NCBI GenBank assembly: GCA_976551045.1
Contig: CDPCPM010000125.1
Coordinates: forward strand, 1,302,001 to 1,366,000
From: Glaucostegus cemiculus
Taxonomy: Eukaryota
DNA length: 64,000 bases
Reading direction: 5' to 3'
How positions within the stretch are numbered: position 1 is the first letter of the stretch; each line of letters starts with the position of its first letter. The position numbers were made by a program, and so were the translations under genes. A model generated the notes under the pieces. That model was not told the origin of the DNA and searched no databases. It saw nothing but the letters and a program-made list of their open reading frames with translations. Below, piece after piece: positions 1,333 to 61,297 of the stretch.

Positions 1333-1359
1333 CAAGGTCATTGATTGAAAAGGATAAAG
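1333..1359 (+). CDS. Micro-exon 1, 27 nt, (A)RSLIEKDK
   Basis: tattttcag|CAAGGTCATTGATTGAAAAGGATAAAG|gtaaaa; 22/27 nt identical to the exon at 20331. Confidence 0.85.
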
Positions 1360-2859
1360 GTAAAAGTCTAATTATAACATATTTTATTATACCGGGGAAA
1401 ATCAAATGATAGAATACCCCATTTCGCAGGTGGTGGTATTCTGTTCAACAATCACTTGAACAGAAAACTCGCCTCCCCTAGAACAGTAATCTGTTCTCCA
1501 CCTGGAGAAAACAAAATGACATGTCGGAATCTGGACTTTAGGCCCCAATAAAAATAAGTAATTGTCAGAGTTGTATATATTCTCTTCTGTATTCATGCAT
1601 ATGCATCAACGTGAACATAATTAGCCCAAGGAAGCAATAATCAATATGCATGCCCTCTCATAGACCCATCAATATAAATATATGTTTGGAGTAATTGGTT
1701 AACACGGCGACTGAAGTGTTTTATTGATTATATCTCTGATTATTTAACTGTTTACAACAATATTCCACTTATATTCGTCTATATATAGTCCTGCACCTTT
1801 ACCCTTACTTAAACTAATAGTTTAATTTTTCACGATGTGTTATATTTTGCAAAATTTCTCTGTTTAAATCATCACTCGTGCCACCAATGCACTCTATTCT
1901 AAAATCGACACAATACTATGTGATACAGGTTTTTTTTCTGTGTGATTCTTATTCGGTAATTGATAGTATTTTTTCCTCGTGGTGGCTTAGCATTTACCAC
2001 GTACCCAGTGTGACAGGAACTAACAATCAGCATGAATTCTAAATTTAGGAACACTTTCCTCCCAGACTTATGATAGAGTCTTGCGTTGTCCGAAATGTTG
2101 TATATACAATGAAATGACAAGAGTGAGCATTTTCTCTCTCCAGATTATACTGGACGAAACACTACATTGTTTACTGTGACCCATTCAAATATTTTCGCCC
2201 CACTGCCATACTTACAGCAATAGTTAAATAATTGGGTTATTTACCTCTTTGGAGTTAATTATACAATCATAGCTGTAATGAAGTTTTCGCTTTATTATTA
2301 CAGTGACTGCAAAGCTTTCTACGTTTCCTTGAGCACCATAGGCACCAGGAAATGGATGGCCAATTATTACTCTATCCATTATTTTTATGGTCATTCTCAA
2401 AGAGATAGAAGCAAACATTTATAATTACCCTTCCGTTCATTCTTGGTCTTATTGACGACATGATGAATATGCAATTGGCGATAATTCATGAAGCCATTTG
2501 CAACACAGCAATATCTTCGTTACATACCAAATAATCCACACAAGTTCAGAGCAACGGTACTTATTATAACCTTAAAACATTCTAATTGGCGGGGTTATTA
2601 TTCTGATCGGAAAATAAATGCGAATCAAAATAGATGAGCAAAATACTTGCTAAACTTCTCTTAAAGGCACTGTTTTCTTCAACTTTGCAAAGTTTCCATG
2701 TCTTTTTGGAGAATATGTCAGAATATGTCTATCTATCCGCTACAAAATACTACGATACTCCCCTTTCCCTGGAGATAACGTGATGGACAAACACAGGCCG
2801 TTATCCCTCCTGAGTGGGCCCTCACAACCATCTGAAAGTTTGGCTGTACCGCATGGCTT

Positions 2860-2997
2860 ATCAAACGGTTTCCTCCCACATTCTGAAAGACGTACGGGTA
2901 GGTTAATTTGGGGGTTAAAAATGGGCGGCGTGGACTCGGAGGACCGAAAGAGCCTGTTACCACGCTGTAAATAAAATTAAATTAAATTAAAATTAAA
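2860..2997 (+). mobile_element. V-SINE/HE1-like SINE 3' part with (TTAAA)n tail
   Basis: ggtttcctcccacattc V-domain motif, then ...ctgtaaataaaattaaattaaattaaaattaaa. Confidence 0.65.
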
Positions 2998-3130
2998 CGG
3001 CTAGTAGCTAAGAATAATTTGGCACAACACATTTTTTTATTTTTTTATTTAATGAAACAAAACGAATGGAAGTCACATTAATTATCTGCAGAGGTAAGTG
3101 ATCAGAAATTAACTTAAGTATGTATTTCAG

Positions 3131-3166
3131 AAATACAGATGTTGAGAGCCAACCAAAAGCTGGGAG
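3131..3166 (+). CDS. Micro-exon 2, 36 nt, EIQMLRANQKLG
   Basis: gtatttcag|AAATACAGATG...AAGCTGGGAG|gtaaac; EIxxL start of the 36-nt class. Confidence 0.7.
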
Positions 3167-3619
3167 GTAAACAATTCCATGTTTTTTCACGTTGCAAATG
3201 ACCAACAATTGCTAACAGAGAACTGAATGCTTTTGAATAAAAGGAAACGGATCTGTTAAACTGCTATGGTCTTAGTTTTCAACCAACCTAGAATTTGGTG
3301 GTCACAATTAATAACGGAGCACTATCAGTGGTATACATATTTGCATAATATTTGGTTTTAATATTGTACATCCAGAAGTCATTTTATGTGGGCATGTGAC
3401 AAAGTATTTTGACGTGTCCAAGTTCACAAAAAATGTTTCCACAATGTTGTCAGTTTGATTAGAATGGCACCACTACGTGCATTAATTCGATTCGCAGATG
3501 ATGAAATCCGGAACAAAAAGTAAACTGTTGGGAGAACTCAACGGACCAAGCGTGCTCCATGATTTTGTAGCAGACAATATAACAATATGTGGGCAACATA
3601 AGTAATATCCAATCCCTGC

Positions 3620-4290
3620 GCTTACCCATGATTCATTTTGCATCGAGGAATGGATAAAAATGTGACCCCTATGAAAACCGAGTTCTTCTCCGCGACCAAG
3701 CACTATGCGGTCACTCCAAATCGCTTGTCCTGTTACATGGCCTTGTTCCAGATATCCCGAGCTGGGAGAAACATCGGCTCTGCATGCATGCTGTCTAGAG
3801 TTTACAGAATGTTGTAAGTTTGAATTAGAACATGTATAATTCTTTCAATTTTGAAGAACACAATACAAATCAAGTCAAATTCTCCCATTACCTCAGTAAT
3901 CAGTCTGCTGCAACGTTGCCTCGTGTCCATATGCAGTGTCACCAATACTGTGTATGCTACTAAAATTAACGATCGCACCCGAACTCATCTTACCGTCAAG
4001 AACTGCTAGCCTGATACACTATTTATTGCATCTACATTGTTTTCAGTGAATCGTGTACAAGAACTTCCAAGTCTCATTGTCGCTCTGAAATGGATAGGTT
4101 CCAATCTATCTGCTGAGTACTCCACGAACCATGTATCTGTTCACCCGTTTAATCTGTTGTCTTCAAATTTCCTCACACTCAGCTATCCAATCGACTTCAG
4201 TGTAACGGACAAAATCTAACATGATGCATTCTGTCGCTTGATCCAAATCATTAATATCATTAGGAATAGCAGAGGCAGATACAGGAACGC
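3620..4290 (-). mobile_element. Highly degenerate CR1 fragment
   Basis: Resembles the reverse complement of the CR1 RT C-terminus (atccaaatcattaatat...gaatagcagagg). Confidence 0.5.
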
Positions 4291-4389
4291 CAACATAAAT
4301 TGAAAGAAAGGGGGTTACTGCGCGCAGATGAAAAACTAAGGAAGTAGGACAATAGAAATGGAAGACGATACATGTGCATTAGATGTAAG

Positions 4390-4720
4390 CAAAATTTTGA
4401 AAATGCGTGTTTGGAAATGCAGAATGTGCGGTGAATAAGCTTGGTGGCTGCAAAGACAAATTACTATGCGGGGTTATGATGCAGTTATACTAACCAAAAC
4501 GGAGTTCATAAAATATGTAAGTAGATATCCCAGGATATTTCGATGGCAGGACATGATAGGGAGTTTAAAAACGATGTACCAAAAAAATGTTGGGCAGGAG
4601 AGTGACGATGTTCCTGACTAGTAACGTATATAATTGTTATGGCAAGTGCTCAGTAGTAGGAAGGGTGCTGGAAAGTTACCAGAGATATTATTTAGGCCAT
4701 CAGGTAGTGTCGTTTGTGTG
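4390..4720 (+). mobile_element. Degenerate CR1 endonuclease (APE) N-terminal fragment
   Basis: Decayed NAR..NK, YD.V.ITET and IPGY motifs (aatgcaga...aataag, tatgatgcagtt, atcccaggatat). Confidence 0.45.
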
Positions 4721-5719
4721 TCAGAGCGAGCAAGATGGAGAGAGAGACGGGGCTGTGGAGAGAGGAAAGATTGGTAGATTTTGACCCAGGATATTGATTT
4801 GAACCAAACAGCCCAAATTGCTTATGTAGCAGTAATTTGTGTACCGAAATGTTAAGATGAAAGTGATAATTAACAGGAAAGTCAAAATGGAATTTCATAG
4901 GCAGAAAGTTAACTCAAATAGTAATTTCCCTGCGGAGTACAAATGACATTGCTACAGCAGAGCTAAGTGGGAAGTTAAAGATGTTACCTTTTCCAATTCT
5001 CAGGACAGAGAAATTACCTTCGTAAAAGTTAGAATGGAGAGGGAATGAAGCCATTTCCTATGTGTAGATGCAAATTATATCAGCAGGATGCGAAATGAAT
5101 TTAGACGCAGCTGTCTCCTATGGCACCATTCAGGGATAGTAATTAAGGTAAATAATGGATATGACATAATTTTCAAAAGAAGGAGTGTTTGTGGATTTAT
5201 CATTGTTCAAATTATATAAATCGTCATTCATGGATACTCTCTAAATCATGTTTTAAGAAAAACGGAGATCGAAATTACAGAAGCTCTAAGTACAATTTAG
5301 CAATCGATCCCCTCTCCGAGAGAAACAGAAGGGGGGCAGATGATTGGTGTACTGATACGATTATTCAATTCATTAAACATGGTATTCGAACTTATTTCTT
5401 GAGAAATATTTGCTGATAGTACCGAACGACTTGCTGTGTTTCCAATTGTGTGATAAAAGTTTGTTTACCTGGAGAGTTGGTTCCCTTTTCGTAGAAATGG
5501 TACAAATTTTATGGGTTTGCAGCAGTTTTGGACTTCATTTCAAATTTACACATTTTGTGGCTTTGGTTTTAGTTTTATGATAGCAGAAGGCATCTTCTAA
5601 AATGTGTTCAGGAATGGGAAACATCAGCTGGCAATTTGAACTGAAAGCACTTGAATTGTGTTAGTTATTGCAAAATAAGTTTGTTGACGTGTATCGATCA
5701 TACGACCTCAGGCACTCTA

Positions 5720-6660
5720 CCCTGTAACTGAAAGATGTGTAAAATCTGTCTCTACACCTGCTGCATTATCCCCATTCAGGGCCCTAAACAGCCCTTCCAG
5801 GTGAGGCAGTCTTTCACATGCAAATCCCGCGGCGTCATTTATTGCATCTGATGCTTAAATTGTGGCCTCCTCTCATCGGTGACACTGGAAGGAAAATGCG
5901 CGATCACTTCTCCGAGTTCTTTCGCTCTTTCCACTGATCCAATTTAGATCTCCGGATTTCCAGCTATTTTAATTCTCCTCCCCATTACCGTACCGATATG
6001 TCTGAACACAGATTCCTCTTAACCTGTAATGATTTGTTATCAATAAAAAGATTGAAAAAGAAGAAAGACAGATTCCTCTACTGCTAAAATGAAGCTAATC
6101 GCATATTAGATGAAGGGCATCTCATTTTCCACCTGGGTAATCTACAGCCTGGCGCCGTTAACATTGAAATTTACAACGTCCGGTAACTGCTCCGGCTCTG
6201 TCCCTTTTTTTCTCACCTCCTGATCGACCTGGCCCCCATCATCATGCCTCATTTCCCCTCCTCCTTACTCTCCAACTTGCTATCAACCACATCTCCTCCC
6301 ACTGGCGCCCTTCTCCCATTAGTCCACTGCTCCCTCCCCACTTCCATCCCTTTATTTAGGTCCTATCAGATTCCATCATAGGCATCCCTTTGACACTTTT
6401 ACCTATTATCGGCCTTCTTCTGGCGCTATTGGCACCCTCTGCTCACCACATATGCATATCATCCCCATCATCTGGGTCCACCCATCGCCTACCAGCTCTT
6501 CCACAACTCTTTCCCTCCACTTTTTTCTGCTGGCTAGATCCCCTCTTTCCTTCGGCCCAAATGAATGGTTTCGACCCCAAACGCCGTGTGTCCATTTACT
6601 GCCACAGATTTTGCCCGACCTGCTGAATTCCTCCAGCGTTTCGTGCACTGCTTCATTTCA
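5720..6660 (+). mobile_element. Penelope-like element 3' part (decayed GIY-YIG endonuclease plus terminal repeat)
   Basis: ttccaggtgaggcagtctttcacatgc...gtcatttattgcatc...tgtggcctcctctcatcggtgacact reads FQVRQ.FTC...VIYCI.C..CGLL.IG.T; ends with cctgctgaattcctccagc. Confidence 0.75.
6008..6079 (+). mobile_element. 48-bp 5'-truncated retro-insertion with a 12-bp target-site duplication, nested in the Penelope element
   Basis: ACAGATTCCTCT at 6008-6019 and 6068-6079 flanks taacctgtaatgatttgttatcAATAAAaagattgaaaaagaagaaag. Confidence 0.75.
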
Positions 6661-7060
6661 GATACTCCCTTCCTTACATATTTATTTATCTGCTTGCTTT
6701 CTATCATACAGAAGGTCACTCGGTTAAAAGAGATTATGTTTCATTCTCCAGAAACATTATTTCGGTTTCTTTTTGCGTAGATATACTGCAAAAATTTTGT
6801 AGAATTCTTCATTTTCATTTGCTTAAGTTATTCAATATTCGCTGTTCTTCCCAAACAGATGAATTTGTTGGTCCCTTTGTTCCTCTTCGTCTCCCAGCTT
6901 TTTAAATACCGGTCAATATTCTCCCCACAATCATTGCTCATGGTTTGCTCTCTCTCACCGAAGGTCACTTAATGAACTGCGCTCCGACTTTCGTAACTTA
7001 GAATAGGAATTTTCGCAAACCACATTGCGATTTAGGAGCTTCAGTTCCCACTATCCACAG

Positions 7061-7096
7061 CTGAGTCAGCTGATTTCACCTCACTGATATCCGCAA
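7061..7096 (+). CDS. Candidate extra 36-nt micro-exon, AESADFTSLISA (not counted in the 27)
   Basis: ctatccacag|CTGAGTCAGC...ATATCCGCAA|gtaact; open in phase 1 and ends SLxxA like ESLRQA/ISLKDA, but the N-terminal half is divergent. Confidence 0.35.
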
Positions 7097-7995: not shown

Positions 7996-8016
7996 AACTA
8001 CCAAACAAAAGTACAG
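7996..8016 (+). CDS. Micro-exon 3, 21 nt, ELPNKST
   Basis: tttctttcgccag|AACTACCAAACAAAAGTACAG|gtgagt; strong splice sites, one heptad long, contains Pro. Confidence 0.6.
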
Positions 8017-12459: not shown

Positions 12460-12486
12460 AAGATAAACTACGTCAGTGCGAAAAAG
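12460..12486 (+). CDS. Micro-exon 4, 27 nt, EDKLRQCEK
   Basis: tatttgcag|AAGATAAACTACGTCAGTGCGAAAAAG|gtgaga; paralog of the exon at 24918. Confidence 0.85.
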
Positions 12487-13509: not shown

Positions 13510-15292
13510 ACATAGCCTTGTAGAGGGACAGGATCAGACGATATGGGAAAGAATTTAACCGGGATAGGGGGAATTATGATGCTATTATACAGGAATTTGG
13601 GAGCGTAAATTGAGAACAGATGTTCCGGGGAAATTCACAGCGGTAATGCGGAGGCTATTAACCAAAAAAGCATAGAATCATAGAACCATAGAACAATACA
13701 GCACAATACAGGCCTTTGGTTCATTATGTTTTGCCGCCCTTCAAATCACACCAAAGACTATCTAACCCTAGGGAGTACTTGCATGGGGTTCTGGATAGGA
13801 TGGTCTCATTGAGGCAAGGTAAGGATGGTAGAGTGAAGGAACCGTGGTTGACAAGATAGTTAGAATATTCTGTCGACGAAGAAAGAATCTTACCAAAGGT
13901 TCCGAGGCGCATGGTTCAGAGAGAACTCTGGAGAGTTAAAAGGTAACTAGGAGGGAGCTTAAGAACAGACTTAAGAGAGGTAGAAGGTGGCATGAGAAGT
14001 CCCTGACGAGTAGGATCAAGAAAAACCCCAAGGCGTTCGACACCTGTGTGAAGAATAGGAGGCTGACTGGACTGAGTGTAGGAGCGATCAGCAGGGATAA
14101 AAGATGAAACATATACCTGGAGTCGGAAGAGTTAGAGGATGTCCTGAATGAACATTTTGCTTCAGTATTCACCAGAGAGAGAGAGATAGACATTGAAGTT
14201 TGTGAGGATGGACTAAGAAAGGTTGATACGCTAGGGTATGTTGAAGTGAGGAAAGTGGATGTGCTGCAACTTCTGAAAAACATTAGGATAGTTAAGTTTC
14301 CCGGGCCAGACGGGATATATCAAGGTTATTACGGGAAGTGAAGGAAGAGAATGCTGCGCCTTTGGCGATAATCTTTGCGTTCTCATTGGCCAAGGGAGTA
14401 ATGCCAAATGATTGGAAGATGGCAAATGTTGTTCCGTTGTTTAAGGAAGGGAATAGGGATAACTCTGGGAATTACAGACCAGTGAGTCTTAATTCAGTGG
14501 TGGCCAAATTACTGGAGAAAATTCTTGTAGAGTGTGAAATGATACACTTCGGGCGATGGAATTTGAAGGCAGAATTCAAAATTAATGGCTGGACTCTTAG
14601 CAGTGTGGAGGAAGAGATGGTTCTTCGGGTCCATGCCCATAGATTACTCAAGGCTGCCGTGCAGGTCGGAGGGTGGTTACGAAGGCGTATAGTGTGTTGC
14701 CCTTCATTAATCGGGGTATTGAGTTCAAGAGCCGCGAGGTAATGTTGCAGTGCTGTGGAACTCTGGTTATACCACACTTGGAGTGTTGTGTTCAGTTATG
14801 GCCGCCCAGTGATAGGAAGGATGTGGAAGCTTCAGAGAAGGTTCAGAGGAGATTTACCAGGATGCTGACTGAATTGGAGCGCACGTCTTGTCAGGATAGA
14901 TTGACTGAGCTGGGGCTTTATTCTATAGAGAGAAGCAGGATGAGCGGTGACTTAATAGACTCTACAAGATGATAAGAGGTATAGAACGAGTGTACAGTCG
15001 GAGAATTTTCCCCAGGCCGACAATGGCTAACATGAGGGGACATAATTTTAAAGTGATTAGAAGATATAATAGGGATGTCAGGGGTAAGTTTTGTTTTTCA
15101 TACAGAGAGTGATGGGTGCGTGGAATGCACTACCGGCAAAGGTTCTGGGGGCAGATACATTATGGAAATTTAAGAGCTTCTTCGAAATACACATTAATAA
15201 AGGGTTAGATAGGACTTAGAGCAGGATAATATGTCAGCACAACATTGTGGGCCGAGGAGCCTGCACTGTGTTGCAGTACTCTATGCTATATG
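13510..15292 (+). mobile_element. CR1 LINE fragment (decayed ORF2, internally deleted) interrupted by an antisense CR1 tail at about 13670-13770
   Basis: ORFs with PNDWKMANVVPLFKEGNRDNSGNYRPVSLNSVV and PHLECCVQLW...EKVQRRFTRM; CR1 3' UTR ending tactctatgctatatg; catagaatcatagaaccatagaac tail at 13670. Confidence 0.9.
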
Positions 15293-16461: not shown

Positions 16462-16488
16462 ATCGATTCTTCACCAAATTCGATGCAG
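16462..16488 (+). CDS. Micro-exon 5, 27 nt, DRFFTKFDA
   Basis: ttttattttcag|ATCGATTCTTCACCAAATTCGATGCAG|gtaatg. Confidence 0.7.
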
Positions 16489-17508: not shown

Positions 17509-17535
17509 GTCTTGACAAACTTCTTCAAGATACAG
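17509..17535 (+). CDS. Micro-exon 6, 27 nt, GLDKLLQDT
   Basis: tttgtccccag|GTCTTGACAAACTTCTTCAAGATACAG|gtaaac. Confidence 0.8.
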
Positions 17536-20330: not shown

Positions 20331-20357
20331 CGAAGTCAATCCTTGAAAAGGATAAAG
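20331..20357 (+). CDS. Micro-exon 7, 27 nt, AKSILEKDK
   Basis: ctgtttgcag|CGAAGTCAATCCTTGAAAAGGATAAAG|gtaatt; paralog of exon 1. Confidence 0.88.
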
Positions 20358-23936: not shown

Positions 23937-23972
23937 AAATTCTAACTTTAACAGAAAGTCTACGGCAGGCAG
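23937..23972 (+). CDS. Micro-exon 8, 36 nt, EILTLTESLRQA
   Basis: ttcattcttag|AAATTCTAACTTTAACAGAAAGTCTACGGCAGGCAG|gtaagg; internal in-frame AG at 23953-23954 would give an 18-nt form. Confidence 0.85.
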
Positions 23973-24917: not shown

Positions 24918-24944
24918 AGGACAAAGTGAAAACGTGTCAAGCCG
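24918..24944 (+). CDS. Micro-exon 9, 27 nt, EDKVKTCQA
   Basis: ttgtttcgtag|AGGACAAAGTGAAAACGTGTCAAGCCG|gtaaaa; EDKxxxC shared with exon 4. Confidence 0.8.
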
Positions 24945-27112: not shown

Positions 27113-28120
27113 ATAGATTAGATTAGATTAGAATCTTTATTACCATTGTACAAAAGTACAACGAAATTGTACACAGTTCCAATCAGTGCAAAAAGAAACA
27201 ACAGAAGCAACAACAAAAAATAGCCTATCTAAGATTTTAAAAAAAGAAAATTACAAGTAACTAGACAATAATAAAAATATATATACATACACGTATGGGT
27301 ACAAAAGGCGTGCGCTCGTACCATTAAAAAAAAACAAACATCTATGCCGTTAACAAATGTGCATGTAACAGAAGTATGAATTTGAATTCAAAAATTGCAC
27401 AGTTCACAGTTAAAGTAATGGATTGCACGGGATGGAATATTGCACAGTTAGATATCAATGTTCATTTATTATTGCAACGGTCCTGGGATATGTGCTGTTC
27501 CTCAGTCTGTTTGTTCTGGCTTTTATTATCCTATACCACCTTCCTGAGGGTAACAGTTGGAACAGGTAATGTGCTGGGTGAGATGTGTCCTTCAGGATAC
27601 TACGAGCTTTTCTATGGCAGCGGGACCTGTATAACTCCTTTAAAGAGAGGAGAGCACAGCCGATGATTTTCTGTGCTGTGTTGATGACCCTCTGGAGCCC
27701 TGTCTTTTCCTGGGAGGTGCAACTGGCAAACCACACTGGAATGCAATACGCCAGTACGCTTTCCACAGAGCATCTGTAGAAGGACACCAGCAGCTCCTTA
27801 GCTCGGGCATTGTTCCTCAAGACCCTCAGGAAATGGAGTCGCTGCTGTCCCTTCTTAATCAGCGCAGTGGTGTTGGTTTTCCAGGAAAGGTTATCATCCA
27901 GGTGCATGCCCAGAAACTTGAAATCTGAAACCCTCTCCACACGGTCCCCGTTGATGTATATGGGCTGAGGGTCAGATATGTTTCTCCTGAAGTCCACTAT
28001 TATTTCCTTAGTCTTTGTGGTGTTGAGGACCAGGTTGTTATTGATGAACCATAATGACAGTTTTTCCACTTCATCCCTGTATGCAGACTCTGCTCCCTCT
28101 CTGATGAGCCCGACCAATAT
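27113..28120 (-). mobile_element. 5'-truncated Rex1/Babar-type LINE with an uninterrupted 220-aa RT C-terminal ORF (27455-28117) and (TAGAT)n tail
   Basis: VGLI...AYRDEVEKL..W...NNLVLNTTKTKEIIVDFRR...FKFLG...QQRLHFLR...LLPSGR.YR; microsatellite tail at 27113-27132. Confidence 0.9.
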
Positions 28121-28550
28121 AGTCTGTCAGAGTATAGTTATCAAATAAAAATACAATAAAAGTCTCAATTTATTCAGCCATCCTAAGAAACGTTTTCAAG
28201 ATGTTTCCCTTTTATTCGTGCAGGGGCCTTGTCATATATTTTTTTTGAGAGTTAGGCTGACAAAATGGAAGTCCATTTTCCTGGATTCCTGTGCAATGAT
28301 GGTCAACCTTCCCGAATTCATTTGCTTCATGGAAACGTCATCGAAATGTTAACTTAGCCAAATATGAGATGAGTAAACTGAGATGAACACCGACTCCGCC
28401 CCATCCCTCAAAAAAAAGCAATGAATAAAAACGTACTACTTCGGTGGGAAACGAGGAAGTAATTCGACTTCCAACCAAACATGTCGGTGTTTCAACGTTT
28501 TTCGGGATGTTTTTGACCCTACATGTTATTGCACAGTTTCTATGTTGCAG

Positions 28551-28577
28551 GATCGCAAACGACTGGAAAAGACAATG
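28551..28577 (+). CDS. Micro-exon 10, 27 nt, GSQTTGKDN
   Basis: tatgttgcag|GATCGCAAACGACTGGAAAAGACAATG|gtatta; 18/27 nt identical to the exon at 31155. Confidence 0.72.
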
Positions 28578-29476
28578 GTATTATTTTTAGCCGAATACTC
28601 TTTAACATGCTGTGTAACATACAACTCGTGCAGACCACTAAGGTCAAACTTCGGCGGTATGAGCGTGGCAGCGACTAAATAAAGAAACAGAAACTGACAT
28701 TGTTCATGTTCTTTTTGGAAAAGGTTTTAAAAGAGCATTATCCAACCTCATGCAGAGGTAGTAAACAATGCTAATTTCAGGACGTTTCCCAGAAAATAGC
28801 CAAGACTTTCATTGTCATTAACCCCCCCCCTCCCAAAAAACCGCATAATTTGGTAATTCTGAACCATTTCGCAGTTTTTTTATTTACTAAAATTACAGAA
28901 CGTGGTTCGTACTTCATGAACTCATTGAACTTTGCTTTCAGTGCACTTAAATTTTCCTTGGTCTTTCCTTATATGGGCTGTTCTCACCATGCAGTTTTGG
29001 GACTTATTTTTATCAACCAACTCGATCAACCATTCCGATACTCATGCCATTTCCCTATGAGTCCCTAAGTGCAGGTGTATCCTCCCACTTATCTGCTCAC
29101 ATCACATCGCACAGCGGCACACCAGCCAATGGGGCAATTAAATCATCTTCAAATTTTGCCCACAATACAATATCTAAATTGGGAAAGAAACATTAAATTA
29201 ATGGGAACATTTTTCAAGACTCCTCAGTTGATTTAAGAGAAGTGGGAATACATTACCTGTGGTCTTGCATAGAATCATATTAACAATGACAAATAGCAGC
29301 CCAGAAGAGGGCTAACTGGCCAATTATGTACACGCCCGCACATCAACAAAACAACTCTTCAGTTCCATAAGATGCGCATGATAAAGCCGTGATAAAAAAA
29401 AAATAGAGAGTAATTTGTGACTTACTCTACAACATGCAAAACAATTCTTGAATTCTCATTTTATTAGAATGCAAAG

Positions 29477-29512
29477 AAATAGAAAGCCTGAGAAAAAAGC
29501 TGGAAGCTGCGG
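29477..29512 (+). CDS. Micro-exon 11, 36 nt, EIESLRKKLEAA (45 nt if the upstream TAG acceptor at 29466-29467 is used)
   Basis: gcaaag|AAATAGAAAGCCTGAGAAAAAAGCTGGAAGCTGCGG|gtgaga; 30/36 nt identical to the exon at 32406. Confidence 0.82.
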
Positions 29513-32405: not shown

Positions 32406-32441
32406 AAATAGAAAGACTACGAAAAAAGCTGGAAGATGTAG
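32406..32441 (+). CDS. Micro-exon 13, 36 nt, EIERLRKKLEDV
   Basis: ttttatgttgaag|AAATAGAAAGACTACGAAAAAAGCTGGAAGATGTAG|gtaagc. Confidence 0.88.
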
Positions 32442-35071: not shown

Positions 35072-35098
35072 CAAAAACTCTCGAAGAAAAGGAAATAG
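35072..35098 (+). CDS. Micro-exon 14, 27 nt, AKTLEEKEI
   Basis: ttctgatttag|CAAAAACTCTCGAAGAAAAGGAAATAG|gtaagt. Confidence 0.85.
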   Translation, partial: QKLSKKRK

Positions 35099-37671: not shown

Positions 37672-38120
37672 ATTAGAACATAGAACATAGAAAAACTACA
37701 GCACAAGTCAGGCCCCTCGGCCCACAAAGCTGTGTCGAACATGTCCCTACACTAGAAATTACTGGGCATTCCCATAGCCCTCTATTTTACTTATCTCCAT
37801 GTACCTATTTAACAGCTTCTTGAAAGACCCTATCGTATCCGCCTCCACCACTGCTTCCGGCAGCCTATTCCTCGCACTCACCACACTCTGAGTAAAATAC
37901 TTACCGCTGACATCTCCTCTATATCTACTCCCCAGCACCTGAAACCGGTGTCCTCTTGTGGCCACCATCTCAGCCCTGGGGAAAAGCCTCTGGCTATCTG
38001 CACGATCAATACCTCTCATCACATTATTTACCTCTATCAGGTCACCCCTCAGCCTCCTTCTCTCTAAGGAAAAAAGGCCGAGTTCCCGCAATCTACTCTC
38101 ATAAGGCATGCTCCTCATTA
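37672..38120 (-). mobile_element. CR1 LINE 3' end with (CATAGAA)n tail
   Basis: ORF YESRLRELGLFSLERRRLRGDLIEV...TRGHRF; tail tagaacatagaacatagaa. Confidence 0.9.
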
Positions 38121-38216
38121 CCTTTTTCTTTCCTACTATGGCATGGTCCAAATAAACTGGCGACATTAAATGCTTTTGAGGGGAACATGCCATATTTATC
38201 ATGTTTTATTTCGTAG

Positions 38217-38243
38217 ATACCAGTCAAGGCGAAACACTGAAAG
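38217..38243 (+). CDS. Micro-exon 15, 27 nt, DTSQGETLK
   Basis: ttttatttcgtag|ATACCAGTCAAGGCGAAACACTGAAAG|gtaaat; good splice sites but poor heptad fit. Confidence 0.65.
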
Positions 38244-38361: not shown

Positions 38362-38388
38362 ATCTAGAAATGAAGCTTGAATACAACA
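38362..38388 (+). CDS. Micro-exon 16, 27 nt, DLEMKLEYN
   Basis: tattattgcag|ATCTAGAAATGAAGCTTGAATACAACA|gtaagt; DLE start and A|gtaagt end shared with the exon at 61108. Confidence 0.78.
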
Positions 38389-41596: not shown

Positions 41597-41623
41597 AGAT
41601 CCATATAAAGGAACTGGAAAAAG
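41597..41623 (+). CDS. Micro-exon 17, 27 nt, (K/E)IHIKELEK
   Basis: ttgttgcag|AGATCCATATAAAGGAACTGGAAAAAG|gtaaag. Confidence 0.85.
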
Positions 41624-43473: not shown

Positions 43474-43509
43474 ATGTGGATAAACTCAACATAGCTATTA
43501 TTGATAAAG
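43474..43509 (+). CDS. Micro-exon 18, 36 nt, DVDKLNIAIIDK
   Basis: ttttcttcgcag|ATGTGGATAAACTCAACATAGCTATTATTGATAAAG|gtaatt. Confidence 0.85.
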
Positions 43510-44990: not shown

Positions 44991-45017
44991 AAAAAGAGCT
45001 GAAAAATAAAGACAAGG
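44991..45017 (+). CDS. Micro-exon 19, 27 nt, EKELKNKDK
   Basis: ttttaaaaacag|AAAAAGAGCTGAAAAATAAAGACAAGG|gtaagc. Confidence 0.85.
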
Positions 45018-45529: not shown

Positions 45530-47568
45530 CTGGTGTTGGTATTAGTATTGGTTTATTTTTGTCACTTGTACCGAGGTACAGTGAAAAACTTGTCTTGCAT
45601 ACCGATCGTACAGGTCAATTTATTACACAGTGCAGTTGCATTGAGTTACTACAGAGCGCATTGATGTAGTAGAGGGTAAAAACAATCCCAGTGCAGAGTT
45701 AGGTGTTAGACCTACAAAGAAAGTGCAGTGCAATAAGGTGAAAGGTCACAACAAGGTAGATCAAGAGGTCAGAGTCCACCTCATTGTATAGGGGAACCGT
45801 TCAATAGTCTTATCACAGTGGTGAAGAAGCTGTCCTTATGTCTGGTGGTTCGTGCTTTCAGATTCCTATATCTTCTCCCCGATGGATGAGTTATTGTATC
45901 ATGCTGGCTGCTTCACCAAGACAACGAGAGGTAAAGACAGAGCCCAAGGAGGAGCGGCTGGTGTCCGTGATGGTTTGAGCTGTGTCGACAACTATTTGCA
46001 ATTTCTTGCGGTCCTGGGCAGAGCAACTGTCGTACAAAACTGTGGTTCATCCAGAGTAGATGCTTCCTGTGGTGCACCGGTAAAAGTTGGTGGGAGTCAA
46101 AGGGGATAAAACATTTTTTTTTCGCCTCCTGAGGAAGTCAAGCCGATGGTGAGCTTTATTGGCCGTGGCGTATCCGTGATTTGGCCATGACAGGTTGTTG
46201 ATATGGTTCACTCCCAGGAACTTGAACTCTAAAAACTCTCGGCCTCAGTACCATTAATGTAGTCAGGTGCATGTACACCGCCCCCTTTCCTGAAGTTAAT
46301 GACCAGCTCTTTTGTTTTGTTGACATTGAGGAAAAGGTTGTTGTCATGACACCATTCCACTAAACTCTCTATCTCCTTCCTGTGCTCCGACTCATCAGTG
46401 CTTGAGATATGGCCAGCAACGGCGGTATCATCTGCAAATTTGTCGATGGAGTTAGAGCAAAATTTGGCCAGACAGTCATGAGAGTATAGGGAGTAGACTA
46501 GAGTGGAAGGTTGAGGACGCAGCCTTGTGGGGAACCAGAGTTGAGAATACTCGTGCCGGAGTTATTGCTGCTTATCCTCACCGATTGAGGTTTCTTTGTT
46601 AGAAAGTCTAGGGTTCAGTTACAGAGGGAGATGTTGAGTTGTAGGTCTCAGAGTTTGGTGACAAGATTGTTTGGGATTATTGTATCGAAGGTAAAGCTGC
46701 TGTCAATAAACAATAGCCTCACGTTAGTGTCTTTACTGACCAGACGCTTCAGAGCTGAGTCTAGGGCCAGCGGGATGGTATCCGCTGTAGACTTGTTTCC
46801 ACGACAGGTGAATTGCAGTGGGTGCAGGTTGTCTGGGAGGCTGAAGTTGGCGCTTTCATGACCAACTTCTCAAAGCACGTGATGATAGTGGAAGTCAGAG
46901 CCACTGGTCGGTAGTTATTGAGGCATGTTGCCTTGCTTCTCTTTGGTAAGGGGATGATAGTGGTCTTCTTGAAACAGGTGGGAACATGATATTGAAGCAG
47001 AGAGAGGTTGAATATGTCCACAAATACCTCTGACAGGTAATTAGCACAAGATGTGAGCACAAGGCCAGGGACACCATCTGGGCCAGGTGCCTTCCTGGCG
47101 TTCACTTTCTGGAAGGCTGACTTTGTCCTCCACTGTGATCATAGGTTCACCTGAATTGGAGGCTATCAGGGTGCTTGGTGAAAGTCCAACTCCCTTCTGT
47201 TCAAAACGGGCATAGAATGTGTTAAGATCATGTAAGCTCTCCCATAACTGACGGCTAGTCAGGGTCTCTATTTTGAGTGGGTAATGCCTCTTAGCATCCC
47301 TGATAGCTTTCCTAAAGTCATACCTCGATTTCTTGTGCAGAACAGAATCAGCAGATTTATGAGCAGCAGTCCTCTACTTCAGTAGGGAGTGCATCTCCTG
47401 GTTCATCCATGGTTTCCTGTTTGGGAACACCCGTATTCTCTTCTTCGCTACACAGTCCTCCATACACTTGCTGATAAAGTCTGTGATGGTGGTGGCAGAC
47501 TAATCAATGCTGGTAGCTGAGTCTTTGAGCATTGACCAGTCCACAGTCTCAAAGTAGTTACGTAGGAG
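45530..47568 (-). mobile_element. Rex1/Babar LINE (~2 kb, decayed) inserted in a CR1 tail
   Basis: NARKAPGPDGVPG...VPTCFKKTTIIPLPK...CLNNYRPVALTS; 3' UTR shared with the copy at 53185. Confidence 0.9.
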
Positions 47569-47569
47569 A

Positions 47570-49578: not shown

Positions 49579-49605
49579 AGATAGCGCAAATTAACAACAC
49601 ATATG
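49579..49605 (+). CDS. Micro-exon 20, 27 nt, EIAQINNTY
   Basis: ctgtgttcacag|AGATAGCGCAAATTAACAACACATATG|gtgagt. Confidence 0.85.
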
Positions 49606-51340: not shown

Positions 51341-51367
51341 AGGATAACATCGCAGAAAAAGACCTAG
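51341..51367 (+). CDS. Micro-exon 21, 27 nt, EDNIAEKDL
   Basis: tccatttcag|AGGATAACATCGCAGAAAAAGACCTAG|gtaaat. Confidence 0.87.
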   Translation, partial: RITSQKKT

Positions 51368-55310: not shown

Positions 55311-55754
55311 ACTTCCATCCAAATCGGAAACAGGCAGTATGATGAGTTCAGTGGACCCTTCATAGACTGTGGGAAAATGCTGTCCACAGAGGACCTAGAA
55401 ATGCTGGGAATCCTTCACCATTAACAACGAAACACTTCAATTCCACAATTTTCGAAATTAGCACATTGTACATGAAGCAGACTTTGAAAACTGTTTCGCC
55501 AAAGTTATACGTTTAGATTAAACACCAACTGCTGTATGTGGAATGCGTCATACCGTGTTGGGAGAAATCGGGCTGAATATGTAACAGGGGCTTCCAATCC
55601 ACTCTTAGTTCACTCGGGGGCATTGCAAAAGTCATAAGCGTTATTAGGGCATGGTTGCCGGAACATCACAAGCAAGTACAAGCATATGACGTTAACAAAG
55701 GCAGTGGAACTCTATTAAAATTAAAACAATAAGATAATTAGAGAAACATAATTA

Positions 55755-55980
55755 GAGACATGGTCGTGTAGCGGTTAGTGTAACACTATTAAAGCGCCAG
55801 CGACCCGAGTTATCCGGTTTCCTCCCACATTCCAAAGGAGGCGTGTTAGGAAGTTGTGGACATGCTATGTTGGCGCTCGAAGCTGGCGACACTTGCAGCT
55901 GTCCCGGAACACTGCGCAAAAGATGCATTTCATTGTGTGTTTCGACCTATTTTTGACTAATGAAGATATCTTAATCTTAA
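55755..55980 (+). mobile_element. Internally deleted tRNA-derived V-SINE
   Basis: catggtcgtgtagcggttagtg (A box), ccggtttcctcccacattccaaag V-domain, (ATCTTA)n tail. Confidence 0.8.
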
Positions 55981-56253
55981 GTATTTGTTTATATGTGGTT
56001 ATCTGTTAATCAGTACATTTGGCAGTAAGAGTAAAGCGGCCAGAATGTTGTGAGCAACGCATCTGCAAAGATAAAGGAGGGCCGCACGCACCCGCCGACC
56101 GGCGAACAAGACGGGAGGAGTCAAATTTTACCAAAGATAAACCTAAACATAATATTCTTGGATTTCAGCGAATCTGCTGTGTTGTTTATTTCAATGAAGA
56201 AGATATATTTCCTTGAATGCATCATGAATTAACCATAACGTTTTTATTTTCAG

Positions 56254-56289
56254 AACTAGAAAGTGTAAGAGAACTGCTTAATGATGCAG
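56254..56289 (+). CDS. Micro-exon 22, 36 nt, ELESVRELLNDA
   Basis: tttttattttcag|AACTAGAAAGTGTAAGAGAACTGCTTAATGATGCAG|gtgagc. Confidence 0.9.
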
Positions 56290-57383
56290 GTGAGCGTTTA
56301 ATTACAGTGTCCAAAACTCTTACAGAATTTTGATGAAATCATGCAGTGCAAAAATGTAGAAAGAGTACTTTGAAATCCTTAAGATAAATAAATAAGCTAC
56401 ATCAACGTCTAGCACCGCTATTGAAACAAAATATTATGAAGGAGCAGAAGGAATACAACATTGCATGGAGGTGATGTCCTTGGATAGGCCACCCCTGGAA
56501 TTTCGCTCCCAAAGGAGACTTAAGCAACTTCTGCTTTATGACTTCCGGTCTATCAAAGAGATATCTTGAAATGCACATGCTTGTGAGTTTTATCTGAATC
56601 TAAAGATATGGAAAACGAAGAGGTGGAGAGAAACGTTGTTTTGACACACCACGTAAGGTTCTGAGGCTTTTTGTGTCAGGTGTACAAAAGCTCCGAATTC
56701 ACTCTACTGGAATCGGCATCTTGAACTCATTCAATCCAAACCAACATTCAAAACCTGAATTTGCTATTTTCCCTTCACTTCAGTGTAAATAAATGCATTT
56801 AGGGAATTTAGAAACGAATGCATTCGTTTACATATTTCGGTAAGATCCCACGTATTAGATGTTCTTAAAAATGGCGATTCTGGTAGACCGCTCTCACTCT
56901 AGGCTCAGCACCCTATAAGCACAACAGCGAGTTACACTATAATATGGAGATTATGGCAAGTCGTTTGAAGTCAGTCAGGCGTGTGGGAGTAAGAAATCGT
57001 CAGTTCAGTGAGGTCGCAGATTGTACAATGGCACCAGCTGGAAATAATTACGTCTCACTTCATCCTTGAAAAAATCAATTCAATAATTTACACGATGATG
57101 ATTGTGTTTGAGGATTGTGGAGAAATGAAATGGATAAGGGTATTCATTTACAGATGATTCGTGAATGAACTAATATCAGGTCATATTATTAGGCTTTTTT
57201 TTTTAGTTACTTGTTGTATTGATCAGAACAATTCCTTTCGCCAAGAATGATAACATAAATGTTTAAGTCATGCACCATGCGACAAGAGAATATTGCTTAG
57301 CACGCAACGACAATGCGGCTTTTCGAGGTTTGCTTAAGAAGGAAAGCACCAATTAAATTGACATCGACTTTCAGTTCTTTTCC

Positions 57384-57450
57384 ATTATTATTGTTGTTAT
57401 TATTATAAAGATTGTTATCATTATTATCATTGTTATTGTCATCGCTCATC
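57384..57450. repeat. Imperfect (ATT/GTT/ATC)n microsatellite
   Basis: attattattgttgttattattat...atcattattatcattgttattgtcatc. Confidence 0.8.
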
Positions 57451-57764
57451 GTCTTCATTATCAATTTCTTCGTCGCTGAATTGTATCATTATTATTCCTT
57501 GCACTTCATATCAAGGTATCATGGAGTTTGCAGTATTGAAATGCAGCAGATCCTGTGATCGGCTGATAATTTGATGAGATCTACTTTCCTCTAAATATTC
57601 CCATAGCTGTTCCCTTCTCTGTTAAACACTTTGCCCTATCAGACCTCTGTTATGTTGGGTCTACAGATTCAGAAACCGTGTCTGCATTTGGGGAAGAGGG
57701 CAACATTGAAAGCTACGAGACGCAAGGAGTTAACTGAATGTTTATTAATAATACTGATCAACAG

Positions 57765-57791
57765 GGAGAAAACTGAACAGAAAGGAAAAGG
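57765..57791 (+). CDS. Micro-exon 23, 27 nt, GRKLNRKEK
   Basis: ctgatcaacag|GGAGAAAACTGAACAGAAAGGAAAAGG|gtaagt. Confidence 0.82.
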
Positions 57792-59820
57792 GTAAGTACA
57801 TTCCGGTAAAAAAAATACTTGACACTTAAATTTCAGTGAAATATTTCCACTGTACAGACAGAAGTAAATTAAATTATGCAGCAACACTAAATAGACACTA
57901 GGCAAATTTTGGAAACTACGTGATGGGAAGTAAACAAAACCAAACGAAACTACTCAGCCGAAGGTTCCTTGAGGCTCAGAGATCCATGTGTGAACTATTA
58001 TTGCCCTTTAATTCTCAAAGCTATTTTGGAAGTTCTGTCCAGCGGTTTTGTTTCGTACCGTCACAAACACATTCCTGAAAGTAACTGTCCAGCGCTGGAA
58101 AGTTAGTTTGGCGTTTAAAGTATTACAAAACATTTTATGGTGAAAGTGGAAACGGAGTTCTCCATTAAACAACGATTTAAACCAGTTCCCGTGATTACAC
58201 GAACGAGATATTTCCAAGCAGAGATTGAGGAAATGGAATTTTGATAAAAGGCTTTCAAAATTCCCCATGTTCTTACAAATTCATGCGTTGAACTGTGACT
58301 AAGCTACTGTTTAAGGATAAATTTTGGCAGTACCTTCAGGGCCCAGAAAATGTATTTTAAAGGAGCTCACAACCGACTAATCATCACCAAAACTTATCTC
58401 TATCCCATGTCACCTGGATTGCAAAATAATTGAGAAGTATTTGACTTTTCATTCACTATATTGCGCTTGACAGATCCGGCTTGCGTCGTTAAATTTGGAC
58501 TTATTTACCATTTGCGGCCACTCGCCACACCAAAAAAGAAATCCGCCTCTTTGTTGTAGCCTTATCGCAGGGCAGAACAGCCCAAAAGGGGTGACGAGAT
58601 TTTGCAGGGCAGAAACTATCCGTGCATACGGATTGTCCTGACATCATTCACCAGATCGTACTTCCAGAAGGGTATTCGACTATTTCCAAATACCTCTGAT
58701 TTATAAACCGTGCAAAAACTATTCAAATAAGATGTATTAAAACAACCTAAATATTCATTTCAGAATGAAGAGGACGTCAGTACATAAACTGAGAGTAAAT
58801 AGAGAAAGAGAATGATTTGTTCTGCGTTGGACGCAGACAGGAAGTAGTCATCTACGTCACGATTAGAAAATTAGAGATTTAAAAATGAGGAAACATTGGA
58901 TGAGGGGAGAGTTAACAGGCAAAAATAGTCCATGACTCCATGACTGATATCTGTTGGGTACAGTCAGGCTCAACAGACAATGGGTTTACTGCTGTTCCTT
59001 ATCCATATTGAAGAGTATGAAGAAATGTGCTGCGCAAACTTGCTTATCTATGAGGTATGAAAATGTTAAGGCAATATCACCAACATAATTACCCTGGATT
59101 GAATGGCCGGGCTACTTCTCTTGGAAGTGCATCCTCAGCCTTCACAAGGCGGTGGTTAGTTGGCCAATTAATAACTTCACGACACTGGTCACTAGGTTTG
59201 AAAGCAAGGTTCTGTTTGGACATTGGTGAAAAGGACTATTACAAAGTCAATACATTAAAGTGAGAGAGGAAACTGAAATACAGAGCGAAGGAAAGTCATT
59301 TTGGTATTTGGATAGCCTTGTTACTCGGAGCATGAACGTGTGTCTTGGGTCGTGAGAATCGAATGCATGCTTGTTGTCTTTCTCTGAAATTGTATTCCTC
59401 TTGTCAACGTTATCTAAACGTGAATTGCTGACAGCTGCGCTAACACCCTCCAGCAAATATGAATTCGACTATCTTCTACAACGTTCCGATAATCGTATGT
59501 GCCCTAAATGATTTGACAGTGATTATTTGTTGTTTGCCAACCTAAATGACTGGAGTGTCATTTTTATGTCTTACAAGCACAGGAAACAAACTTCATGATG
59601 ATATTGTACAACATTCTCTCTCGCTTGGCCTTGCCGCAAAAGTCTACCAATTCCTCATGTGCCATACATTAGAAACAAGTGTGCATCCAAACTGAGCCCA
59701 TTTGAATATATGAGTGTGTCTATGTGTGTTTGTGTGTATACATACGATAGAAATATATGCTCCCATGTTTATATACTGCTGCTATACTACTTACGTCTGG
59801 TTTTGTTTGTTCTTTTACAG

Positions 59821-59856
59821 AAATCGAGACTTTACAAATTTCATTGAAGGATGCAG
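59821..59856 (+). CDS. Micro-exon 24, 36 nt, EIETLQISLKDA
   Basis: ttgttcttttacag|AAATCGAGACTTTACAAATTTCATTGAAGGATGCAG|gtagga. Confidence 0.9.
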
Positions 59857-60194
59857 GTAGGAGACAAACTTTTCTCAATTGCATTTAGTGACTGCGATTC
59901 TCTGATAATTCTTTTGCATTTCCAAGCGATAGTTTTCATTTTTATTACTACATTTTCCGGACACCATGTAATGAGCCAAACATTACTCGAGATTACTTAC
60001 ATGAAGCGTTTGTATACAGGAGTGAACACGACAATGAAATACATGACGCTGTTGATTCCAATCAGCTCATTTGCATGTGCAGACTGCAGATGTTTACTAA
60101 ATGTAGCTTTAATAAACTATAAGACTCTTCTCCTATATGTGTCACGACGCCTTTTGAAAACCAATATTGTGTACTTTTTTGTTTGTCTCCGCAG

Positions 60195-60221
60195 AAAATG
60201 CACTGAATAAATTGAGAAAAG
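60195..60221 (+). CDS. Micro-exon 25, 27 nt, ENALNKLRK
   Basis: ttgtctccgcag|AAAATGCACTGAATAAATTGAGAAAAG|gtatga. Confidence 0.88.
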
Positions 60222-61107
60222 GTATGAGCGGTAAATGTGCAGCAGGTCTCATTTTAGGTTTTATTCCGTTACATATGATGAAGAATAATCTGGAAAGAAA
60301 TAATTTGTTCTCAGATAGAGCTGTTTTAGAATAGCTATGACTTTACGTGAGATTGCCATGCAGTATGGTGAAACAATATAAAGCTTACATAAGGATAGCG
60401 AGCTTATGTTGTGTACTGCTTCCTATCACGTCACTGAACAACTTTTCCCCGCTGATGAGGTCATGGCACCTATCTTCCTGTCAACAGTTGCATTTCTGCG
60501 AAGCCAAAGGGCTACTAACAAAAGTATAGAAAATACCTTCGACTGTCTTGAACCATTTACATCTTACAAGTCGTGATATATGATCAAGCTGTAGAGGCAT
60601 GTGATTTATGCCGAATATTCTGAACGAAGTTATTCACTACCCTTCTCCCAACAGCGAGGCTTCCATTATTTGTTCACGTGATCGCCGCAATGTTAAGCAA
60701 GTGATGACTGAAGACAACGGTTTTCAAAGAGAAAACTCAGCATTTGTACGATAATCTGCTCGTTAACTTTTGTCTATTTTCGTACTTTTTCAATGACTTG
60801 GCAAAAGTGTACTTCTGTTCGTATTGCAAGATTTTTACAATATATTATGGATGGAGTAAAATGCCCTAACCTTTCAAGTTCGCATGAAGTTTGTGGAGCA
60901 AATCATATCGCTAAAGCTGAAAGAGTGCGTCTTCCATTATTCACATGCCCGATGCAAAAATAAAATGCTGTGATGTGCAGGATAAACTGAATCTATATTT
61001 TTCCACAAGATTTGATGTTACCTCCATAACTTTAAGTGTAATCTAGGAAGTTATGTGATTCCGAATGATGAGTTTGATTAATATTTTAACGCATATTTCT
61101 TCGCTAG

Positions 61108-61134
61108 ATTTGGAGGATATTCAGCTGAAGTGCA
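61108..61134 (+). CDS. Micro-exon 26, 27 nt, DLEDIQLKC
   Basis: tttcttcgctag|ATTTGGAGGATATTCAGCTGAAGTGCA|gtaagt. Confidence 0.85.
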
Positions 61135-61270
61135 GTAAGTAACAGTCATCAGCTATTACTTTGCATTTGGCACAGTGATATGTATTTTCACTTTATTCAT
61201 GGAATTCTATTCCTGATCTTCTGTCGCAAACAGGACTGAGATTTAAATTACTTCACATCTTTTGTTACAG

Positions 61271-61297
61271 AGTTAGACGAAGTTGAAAGAAACATAG
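61271..61297 (+). CDS. Micro-exon 27, 27 nt, (K/E)LDEVERNI
   Basis: ttttgttacag|AGTTAGACGAAGTTGAAAGAAACATAG|gtaatt. Confidence 0.82.

Follow-up and report, generated by a model that had tools for sequence, protein, structure and literature searches.

A likely single gene of about 170 predicted micro-exons in the ray Glaucostegus cemiculus: a putative coiled-coil rod with a terminal B30.2 domain

We analyzed a 64,000-nucleotide (nt) stretch of the Glaucostegus cemiculus genome (positions 1,302,001-1,366,000 of contig CDPCPM010000125.1; genome 2.85 Gb), hereafter called the window, in which a preliminary description had postulated a hidden gene of micro-exons. The approximately 26 micro-exons of the window belong to an array of about 170 exons spread over 460 kilobases (kb) and followed by a B30.2 exon, and together they likely constitute one gene. 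The predicted product would be a soluble coiled-coil rod of ~1,900 residues with a B30.2 head, likely acting in the cytoplasm as a long tether or adaptor. Coordinates are window-relative, with negative ones upstream, and the analyzed flanks comprised 200 kb upstream and 600 kb downstream. The exons located in the window were as follows.

1333..1359 (+): 27-nt exon RSLIEKDK
3131..3166 (+): 36-nt exon IQMLRANQKLG
7996..8016 (+): 21-nt exon LPNKST, likely a linker
12460..12486 (+): 27-nt exon DKLRQCEK
16462..16488 (+): 27-nt exon RFFTKFDA, copy of RFFTSFNA at -3086
17509..17535 (+): 27-nt exon LDKLLQDT
20331..20357 (+): 27-nt exon KSILEKDK
23937..23972 (+): 36-nt exon ILTLTESLRQA
24918..24944 (+): 27-nt exon DKVKTCQA
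28551..28577 (+): 27-nt exon SQTTGKDN, weak, score 12.1
29468..29512 (+): 45-nt exon CKEIESLRKKLEAA, alternatively 36 nt via a second acceptor at 29477
32406..32441 (+): 36-nt exon IERLRKKLEDV
35072..35098 (+): 27-nt exon KTLEEKEI
38217..38243 (+): 27-nt exon TSQGETLK
38362..38388 (+): 27-nt exon LEMKLEYN
41597..41623 (+): 27-nt exon IHIKELEK
43474..43509 (+): 36-nt exon VDKLNIAIIDK
44991..45017 (+): 27-nt exon KELKNKDK
49579..49605 (+): 27-nt exon IAQINNTY
51341..51367 (+): 27-nt exon DNIAEKDL
56254..56289 (+): 36-nt exon LESVRELLNDA
57765..57791 (+): 27-nt exon RKLNRKEK
59821..59856 (+): 36-nt exon IETLQISLKDA
60195..60221 (+): 27-nt exon NALNKLRK, 36 nt if the second donor is used
61108..61134 (+): likely 27-nt exon LEDIQLKC, resembling LEELQEKC at 68078
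61271..61297 (+): 27-nt exon LDEVERNI

Twenty-five exons of the window (17 of 27 nt, seven of 36 nt and one of 21 nt; 244 codons) were included in the scored exon chain, and 61108-61134 is a likely 26th, outside the chain. The 27 exons and 262 codons of the preliminary description are compatible with these numbers, but matching them one by one is impossible, as the claim came without a list. The chain was filtered for open exons, so the absence of stops after joining is partly built in. The frame was also tested with generic splice scores at thresholds (1,2), without an open reading frame (ORF) filter and without training. All 14 window candidates of 27 or 36 nt were open in phase 1 versus 3 and 4 in the other two frames, and over the entire array the corresponding numbers were 100 of 100 versus 40 and 45. 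On the minus strand across the array span the same test gave seven candidates, three of them open in phase 1. The description of the segments as open in phase 1 on a single strand was hence borne out both in the window and in the array. With splice thresholds of (0,1), AG-to-GT spacings of 27 nt occurred in the window 14 times on the plus strand versus twice on the minus strand, spacings of 36 nt eight times versus once, and the remaining lengths between 9 and 69 nt 0-4 times per strand. The strand comparison that had been proposed as a check thus confined the 27/36-nt excess to the plus strand. The end segments 1333-1359 and 61271-61297 are AG/GT-bounded, 27 nt long and open in phase 1, and the outer limits set earlier, 1333 and 61297, are exact exon borders. 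On this sequence evidence, the window segments were confirmed as genuine protein-coding exons.

The entire window lies inside the array, which runs on one strand from -48157 to 411084 (~460 kb) and reaches ~48 kb before and ~347 kb after the window; the 60-kb gene size given at first was therefore an underestimate of about sevenfold. The chain comprised 171 non-overlapping predicted exons (98 of 27 nt, 65 of 36 nt, and 8 of 15-39 nt; 1,724 codons) with a median intron of 2.1 kb and a largest gap of 15.6 kb, and weak linker exons are probably missing from it. The exon lengths are not limited to three classes, as had been claimed, since the chain also holds exons of 15, 18, 24, 30 and 39 nt, and the 45-nt exon 29468-29512 competes with 29477-29512. 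Profiles trained on the array (score cut-off 12; seed exons scored leave-one-out) detected 97 of the 27-nt and 65 of the 36-nt class in the 461 kb of the array; the corresponding counts were 2 and 1 on 664 kb of the minus strand, but 2 and 0 on the plus strand outside the array (203 kb). Beyond the window, the array and its end were represented by the following elements.

-48157 (+): first detected exon, 36 nt, MDSLERKLRDT
-48157 to -861 (+): ~15 exons before the window
65215 to 404732 (+): ~130 exons, mainly alternating 36 + 27 nt
411058-411084 (+): penultimate 27-nt exon WKKIINCK
411892-412412 (+): terminal PRY-SPRY (B30.2) exon, 172 amino acids (aa)

The terminal exon has its acceptor at 411892 and 172 codons followed by a stop. 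It matched the Pfam families SPRY (E 5.1e-16, above cut-off) and PRY (E 0.0067, below cut-off), its closest solved structure was the B30.2 domain of BTN3A1 (E 3.9e-26, residues 2-160), and it encodes a B30.2 domain. No other B30.2 exon occurred in the 664 kb examined. Its joining to the window exons is what we infer, and one transcript very probably connects them. Two hydrophobic candidates for a C-terminal membrane anchor, at 419244 and 424344, were rejected as they fall beyond the B30.2 stop.

The joined rod is dominated by Glu, Lys and Leu (827 of 1,723 residues) and contains four Pro. Downstream of the window, 36- and 27-nt exons alternated in 97 of 116 neighboring pairs (shuffled 0.50; 0/2000 shuffles), whereas inside the window alternation was found in 11 of 22 pairs (shuffled 0.43, p 0.32), so that the 27+36-nt alternation reported for the window is at chance level there and holds for the part beyond it. 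Hydrophobic residues occupied codons 2, 5 and 9 of the downstream 36-nt exons (n = 54) in fractions of 0.93, 0.89 and 0.91, and codon 4 of the 27-nt exons (n = 70) in 0.81. A 36+27 pair encodes 21 residues, i.e., three heptads, with the hydrophobic unit positions 2, 5, 9 and 16 and a spacing of 3-4-3-4-3-4; Thr or Ala is the commonest residue at position 12, and Lys predominates at position 19 (45/70). A C-type lectin/CD23-like stalk, considered for this 21-aa unit, was dropped once the terminal exon turned out to be B30.2. The power at period 3.5 was 0.66 downstream versus 0.26 ± 0.04 for exon-order shuffles (0/300). The coiled-coil call for the rod rests on this periodicity; a single-sequence model of a Narcine protein was helical over residues 16-73, with low overall confidence (mean predicted local distance difference test score 42.8). 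At 0.1485 nm per residue, a continuous coil of the rod length would measure ~256 nm.

The window belongs to the irregular front part of the rod, with a repeated block of RFFTxFxA, LDKLLQDT, xSLIEKDK and a 36-nt exon. Copies of this block lie near -3 kb and 16 kb and a partial copy near -39 kb, and its last three exons resemble, by eye, a repeated block of S. canicula XP_038671249. The LDKLLQDT exon at 17509..17535 and the exon at -887 encode an identical peptide with two synonymous and no replacement differences. Third codon positions were the least conserved (0.57 and 0.60 versus 0.65-0.73), and no exon lay in a self-alignment extending into its flanks; the flanks of similar exons no longer align. 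The 27+27+36 blocks and the linker exons of the front part would split the rod into segments. As every exon is of phase 1-1, any of them could be skipped in frame, and skipping of a 36+27 pair leaves the heptad register intact.

Relatives were searched for with the B30.2 exon and a seven-row alignment. They consisted of a coiled-coil front and a divergent B30.2 domain, and all those with a named source came from rays, sharks or Callorhinchus. In a B30.2 tree of 52 rows (17 rod-B30.2, 22 TRIM, 10 BTN and 3 other), the 17 rod-B30.2 rows formed one clade (support 100/99, stem 0.73). The B30.2 domain of the ray gene grouped (100/99) with those of Narcine (80% identical), Hypanus (74%), a Logan protein (80%) and S. 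torazame (63%), and Narcine XP_069797409/XP_069797411, Hypanus XP_059806520 and S. torazame GCB75680 are orthologues by the tree. The orthologous models have 172-289 aa and carry the names 'A33-like' or 'TRIM69-like' or the label hypothetical. The expectation of a lineage-specific, poorly annotated micro-exon coiled-coil gene agrees with such misnamed models and with the restriction of the source-named clade members to cartilaginous fishes. Other rod-B30.2 models are Narcine XP_069775384-90, S. canicula XP_038671249, XP_038672306-10 and XP_038668997, Leucoraja XP_055510696, Callorhinchus XP_042191566-8 and Cetorhinus XP_078422387. The chondrichthyan database models share with the ray gene the B30.2 clade, the 9- and 12-aa units and an exact tiling by 3′ exons, but they have 172-945 aa and automatic TRIM, A33 or butyrophilin names, whereas ~1,900 aa are predicted for the ray gene. 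SPRY was the sole Pfam match in six named relatives, which showed no immunoglobulin (Ig), RING or B-box domain.

The Narcine orthologue model (289 aa) was tiled by the exons 333661, 335250, 337773, 339061, 357145, 387568 and 388501, which abut on it with exactly one split-codon residue between neighbors; an eighth exon, 411058, follows in order after 30 unmatched residues. The collinear score was 269 versus 189 ± 20 (maximum 247) in 200 shuffles. In S. canicula XP_038671249, a 770-aa rod of mixed blocks is joined to B30.2. Isoform X2 of Narcine XP_069797409/411 lacks exactly the penultimate exon, and isoform X2 of Callorhinchus lacks the 9 residues preceding B30.2; these Trp-bearing residues, dropped in Narcine XP_069797409/411 and Callorhinchus XP_042191566/567, possibly represent an ancient cassette exon. 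The isoform sets of other relatives differ by 6, 9 or 16 residues, and database sets of this kind are usually RNA-seq based. What the database isoforms mainly lack are single 9-aa exons, and each such loss shifts the register. In the ESM Atlas, clusters with PRY/SPRY and a length of 1,277-1,802 aa bear names such as 'nucleoprotein TPR isoform X51', which suggests that longer models exist in databases under unrelated names. An early protein search for long relatives yielded a chimeric TRIM model, not an orthologue.

The flanks had been pointed out beforehand as a place to look for further domains; the B30.2 exon was found on the 3′ side, but Ig or transmembrane exons were not found upstream. 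Pfam gave no Ig, RING or B-box match in 146 of the 173 non-repeat plus-strand upstream ORFs of at least 70 aa (all except 27 in the outermost 30 kb), and neither an Ig nor a RING motif occurred in the plus-strand upstream ORFs of at least 60 aa. Likewise, tblastn with shark/ray BTN (two) and TRIM proteins detected none of the three domains upstream. The Ig searches reached no more than 40 kb beyond -200 kb. No hydrophobic phase 1-1 candidate of 54-198 nt for a transmembrane exon was present from -170 to -48 kb, a search that weak-splice exons would escape. Quite probably, the predicted protein has neither a membrane anchor nor a RING domain, and a soluble protein is the simplest reading. The exon at -48157 opens with an in-frame ATG, but Met is frequent at this place in internal 36-nt exons, which leaves the start unproven. 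Weak splice scores led to the rejection of further candidates for the first exon, one at -58196 (Met-Ser-Pro) and others between -68 and -48 kb. A CpG island at ~-170 kb with a possible plus-strand first coding exon was rejected as well, as CpG-depleted DNA follows and it looks like the promoter of another gene. The neighboring genes were as follows (GPCR, G-protein-coupled receptor).

-69 kb (segment L034:964-1863) and -194 kb (L021:5886-6818) (+): long rhodopsin-family GPCR ORFs in CpG-undepleted DNA
85-175 kb past the gene end (L084:4327-5877, +; L093:1552-3087, -): two intronless Shaker-type potassium channel ORFs, BTB_2 + Ion_trans

Paralogous arrays were found on another contig, C274. 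The second gene (599000-546030, minus strand, ~50 kb) had 21 of 23 candidates open in phase 1, is collinear with and orthologous to Narcine XP_069775384-90, and ends in B30.2. A candidate 25-nt first exon encodes Met-Ser, with which Narcine XP_069775384 also starts, and just upstream, near C274:616900, lies a first exon that we take to be RBM4-like. The third array (~525000-105000, minus strand, ~420 kb) follows directly; 124 of its 130 candidates were open in phase 1 versus 60 and 72 in the other frames (plus-strand control 6/16), and its 3′ half is largely collinear with S. canicula XP_038671249. No B30.2 exon was found in the 105 kb after it, to the contig end (C274:1-130000 searched), because of either a loss or an assembly break. 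Two B30.2 exons of the rod clade were found in the genome versus ~150 of the TRIM/BTN type, with 150 of 206-222 candidates scored. The TRIM/BTN-type exons form dense clusters on C172, C200, C466, C581, C196 and C274. A 222-aa ORF with a RING finger and a hydrophobic segment at its C terminus, presumably RNF183/RNF223-like, lies at C274 ~51000-50400 on the minus strand.

All three arrays are located inside CpG-undepleted half-megabase domains. The observed/expected CpG ratio was 0.65 across the gene and 0.68 in the window versus 0.26-0.27 over the 250 kb after the gene. It falls between 412.5 and 415 kb, shortly after the stop and close to poly(A) signal candidates at 413.3-414.1 kb. This domain starts near -150 kb, includes a GPCR, and extends to ~413 kb. 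On C274, values of 0.6-0.8 were obtained between ~95 and 600 kb, and of 0.21-0.39 between 600 and 740 kb. When related repeat copies were compared (85 pairs), a CpG of the copy inside corresponded to TpG or CpA in the copy outside 476 times and the reverse 192 times, versus 388 and 360 for the GpC control. The arrays have likely been under long-term low germ-line methylation. One of ten TRIM-cluster stretches also showed a ratio of 0.62, and CpG retention is an effect of the domain. The signature may serve as a simple finder for such loci.

The analogy with BG and butyrophilin genes drawn in the preliminary description was judged apt. Chicken BG genes encode a long coiled coil in many symmetric micro-exons with split first codons and the register running across exon borders, and the soluble BG tail, the zipper protein, regulates actin-myosin (PMC5938342, PMC4046983). 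BG genes have 27-37 exons of 21 nt, a variable Ig (IgV) domain and a transmembrane segment, and no B30.2, whereas the ray gene has about five times as many exons of 27/36 nt, with 1 of 171 chain exons being 21 nt long, a B30.2 end and no IgV domain found. The butyrophilin gene of the same genome at C200:153768-170410 carries, after the transmembrane exon, phase-1 exons of 33, 27 and 27 nt and then B30.2. Its last 27-nt exon, D-WEFMYKSL, and E-WKKIINCK of the ray gene are both Trp-bearing, of phase 1, and directly precede B30.2. Butyrophilin combines IgV, a constant-type Ig (IgC) domain and a transmembrane exon with three micro-exons; none of the former was found in the ray gene, which has ~170 micro-exons. 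TRIM-B30.2 proteins (TRIM39, TRIM21, A33/NF7-like) likewise have a coiled coil before B30.2 and are the source of the database names. However, no RING or B-box was found in the ray gene, its B30.2 domain falls into a separate clade, and the TRIM coiled coils of this genome are encoded by long exons of ~230 nt, unlike its micro-exons. In the two TRIM loci with matched upstream exons, the exon before B30.2 joins it directly, with no Trp-type 27-nt exon. From the butyrophilin-like penultimate exon we infer, with somewhat more confidence than doubt, that a butyrophilin cytoplasmic tail gave rise to the family through loss of the Ig and membrane parts and repeated exon duplication; the tree neither supports nor rejects such an origin. 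Guinea-pig enterophilin-1 (~65 kDa) combines a long leucine zipper with a C-terminal B30.2 domain and has no RING or Ig. Its architecture, likened by general description and not by sequence, fits the ray gene, and it is probably of independent origin. Enterophilin-1 has reportedly been linked to sorting nexin 1 and the traffic of EGFR (PMC13749957).

Several points weigh against one gene for a long soluble rod with such an origin. The splice junctions of the array are predictions from the sequence. No first coding exon was found upstream of the array and its 5′ end is provisional; the CpG-rich domain reaches 100 kb further upstream and does not mark that end. The Narcine model uses 8 of the 29 predicted exons between 333661 and 411058, nothing 5′ of them and no exon of the window. 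The period-3.5 power of the window was just marginal (0.45 versus 0.30 ± 0.09 for exon-order shuffles, p 0.053; 0.19 for residue shuffles). The excess of synonymous single-base codon differences (29 of 66 versus 25% expected), in itself a point in favor, came from 19 exon pairs of at least 75% identity which are mutually non-independent. Some members of the clade had contributed to the profile by which its rows were selected, which favors their grouping, and in the tree, with its long clade stem, the BTN and TRIM rows are intermixed on the other side, so that neither is favored as kin. The short models of Leucoraja and Hemiscyllium begin with a hydrophobic stretch. An array need not end in B30.2, because the third array on C274 has no such exon.

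Some of these observations might be explained differently. The array could be the cytoplasmic tail of a butyrophilin- or BG-type membrane receptor, with signal, Ig and transmembrane exons farther upstream and the GPCR of -69 kb nested in an intron. Such a receptor would account for the butyrophilin-like penultimate exon, the BTN3A1 B30.2 as the best solved match (E 3.9e-26), the layout shared with BG genes (PMC5938342) and the CpG-rich domain beginning near -150 kb. It is nevertheless improbable, as neither Pfam (146/173 upstream ORFs) nor motifs revealed Ig, no hydrophobic phase 1-1 candidate occurred from -170 to -48 kb, the six scanned relatives had no Ig domains, and the C274 paralogue is boxed in by the RBM4-like gene. 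Marginally less probable still are two or more tandem genes, with the window in a front gene that has no B30.2. The front exon blocks do differ from the downstream ones, C274 does hold two arrays in tandem, one with no detectable B30.2 exon, and the Narcine model is limited to the 3′ end; however, the exon density is continuous, with no break and no gap over 15.6 kb, a B30.2 exon separates genes 2 and 3 of C274 and none interrupts the ray array, and S. canicula XP_038671249 joins a 770-aa rod of mixed blocks to B30.2. That the Narcine model skips most predicted exons could also fit a decaying relic or a chance pattern, but with 100 of 100 candidates open in one frame, intact splice sites, the synonymous excess and an intact B30.2 domain 80% identical to that of another ray, this explanation is highly improbable.

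Under the preferred reading of one gene for a soluble rod, two or more chains would join along the a/d stripe to form a parallel rod, hinged at the linker exons and carrying B30.2 heads at one end, apart from an N-terminal or lateral anchor such as the cytoskeleton or an endosome. A parallel rod of up to ~250 nm might keep the heads distant from such an anchor, which is a tentative proposal. The same gene structure might instead serve as an intracellular immune sensor or decoy, in which a pathogen or stress ligand is caught by the B30.2 heads and TRIM or butyrophilin partners are recruited or sequestered by the rod, with no ligase activity of its own. TRIMs and butyrophilins use B30.2 to bind their ligands (PMC8813856, PMC12841164), and the long clade stem (0.73) and the TRIM-type B30.2 genes near the C274 paralogues also speak for an immune role. 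On the other hand, only two B30.2 exons of the clade were found in the genome, against ~150 of the TRIM/BTN type among the candidates scored, a 250-nm rod is far beyond the need for oligomerisation, and the neighbors of the ray gene are GPCR and Kv channel genes. We consider the immune role unlikely, and the long-range tether or adaptor was tentatively favored over it because both precedents for a free heptad tail, the BG zipper protein and enterophilin-1, have cytoskeletal or traffic roles. Splicing could tune the rod length, as exon symmetry permits and database isoforms hint, with paired skipping being purely hypothetical.

In the literature searched (abstract-level listings and few subscription journals, supplements excluded), no description of a rod-B30.2 family was found, and the main text of PMC8455134 mentions neither B30.2, SPRY nor butyrophilin. 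B30.2 domains and heptad micro-exons are known; their combination and scale are new within that literature. A broader proposal, which we regard as doubtful, is that of an undescribed cartilaginous-fish family dating back to the shark-chimaera split or earlier. In it, a freed butyrophilin tail would have grown by exon duplication into rods of up to ~2,000 residues encoded by 100-200 individually skippable micro-exons over half a megabase. Combinatorial skipping would set rod length and segment order for a B30.2 head, and the genes would lie in half-megabase domains escaping germ-line CpG methylation. With ~170 coding exons, the ray gene would rank among the most exon-rich vertebrate genes, of which titin and nebulin are the usual record holders. 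The orthologous models found hold at most 289 of ~1,900 residues, and the gene would exemplify a class that escapes ORF-based and short-read annotation. It would also illustrate clearly how a protein rod can be built through duplication of exons in whole heptad multiples. In the most ancient lineage possessing adaptive immunity, it would extend the butyrophilin/TRIM B30.2 family by a branch that is likely membrane-free. Micro-exon recognition in 2-kb introns would find in it a direct test case. In the introns of the window itself, retrotransposon ORF fragments, which we take to be of the long interspersed nuclear element (LINE) type, were noticed by eye at 14296-14742, 27455-28126, 37759-38205 and 46761-47138.

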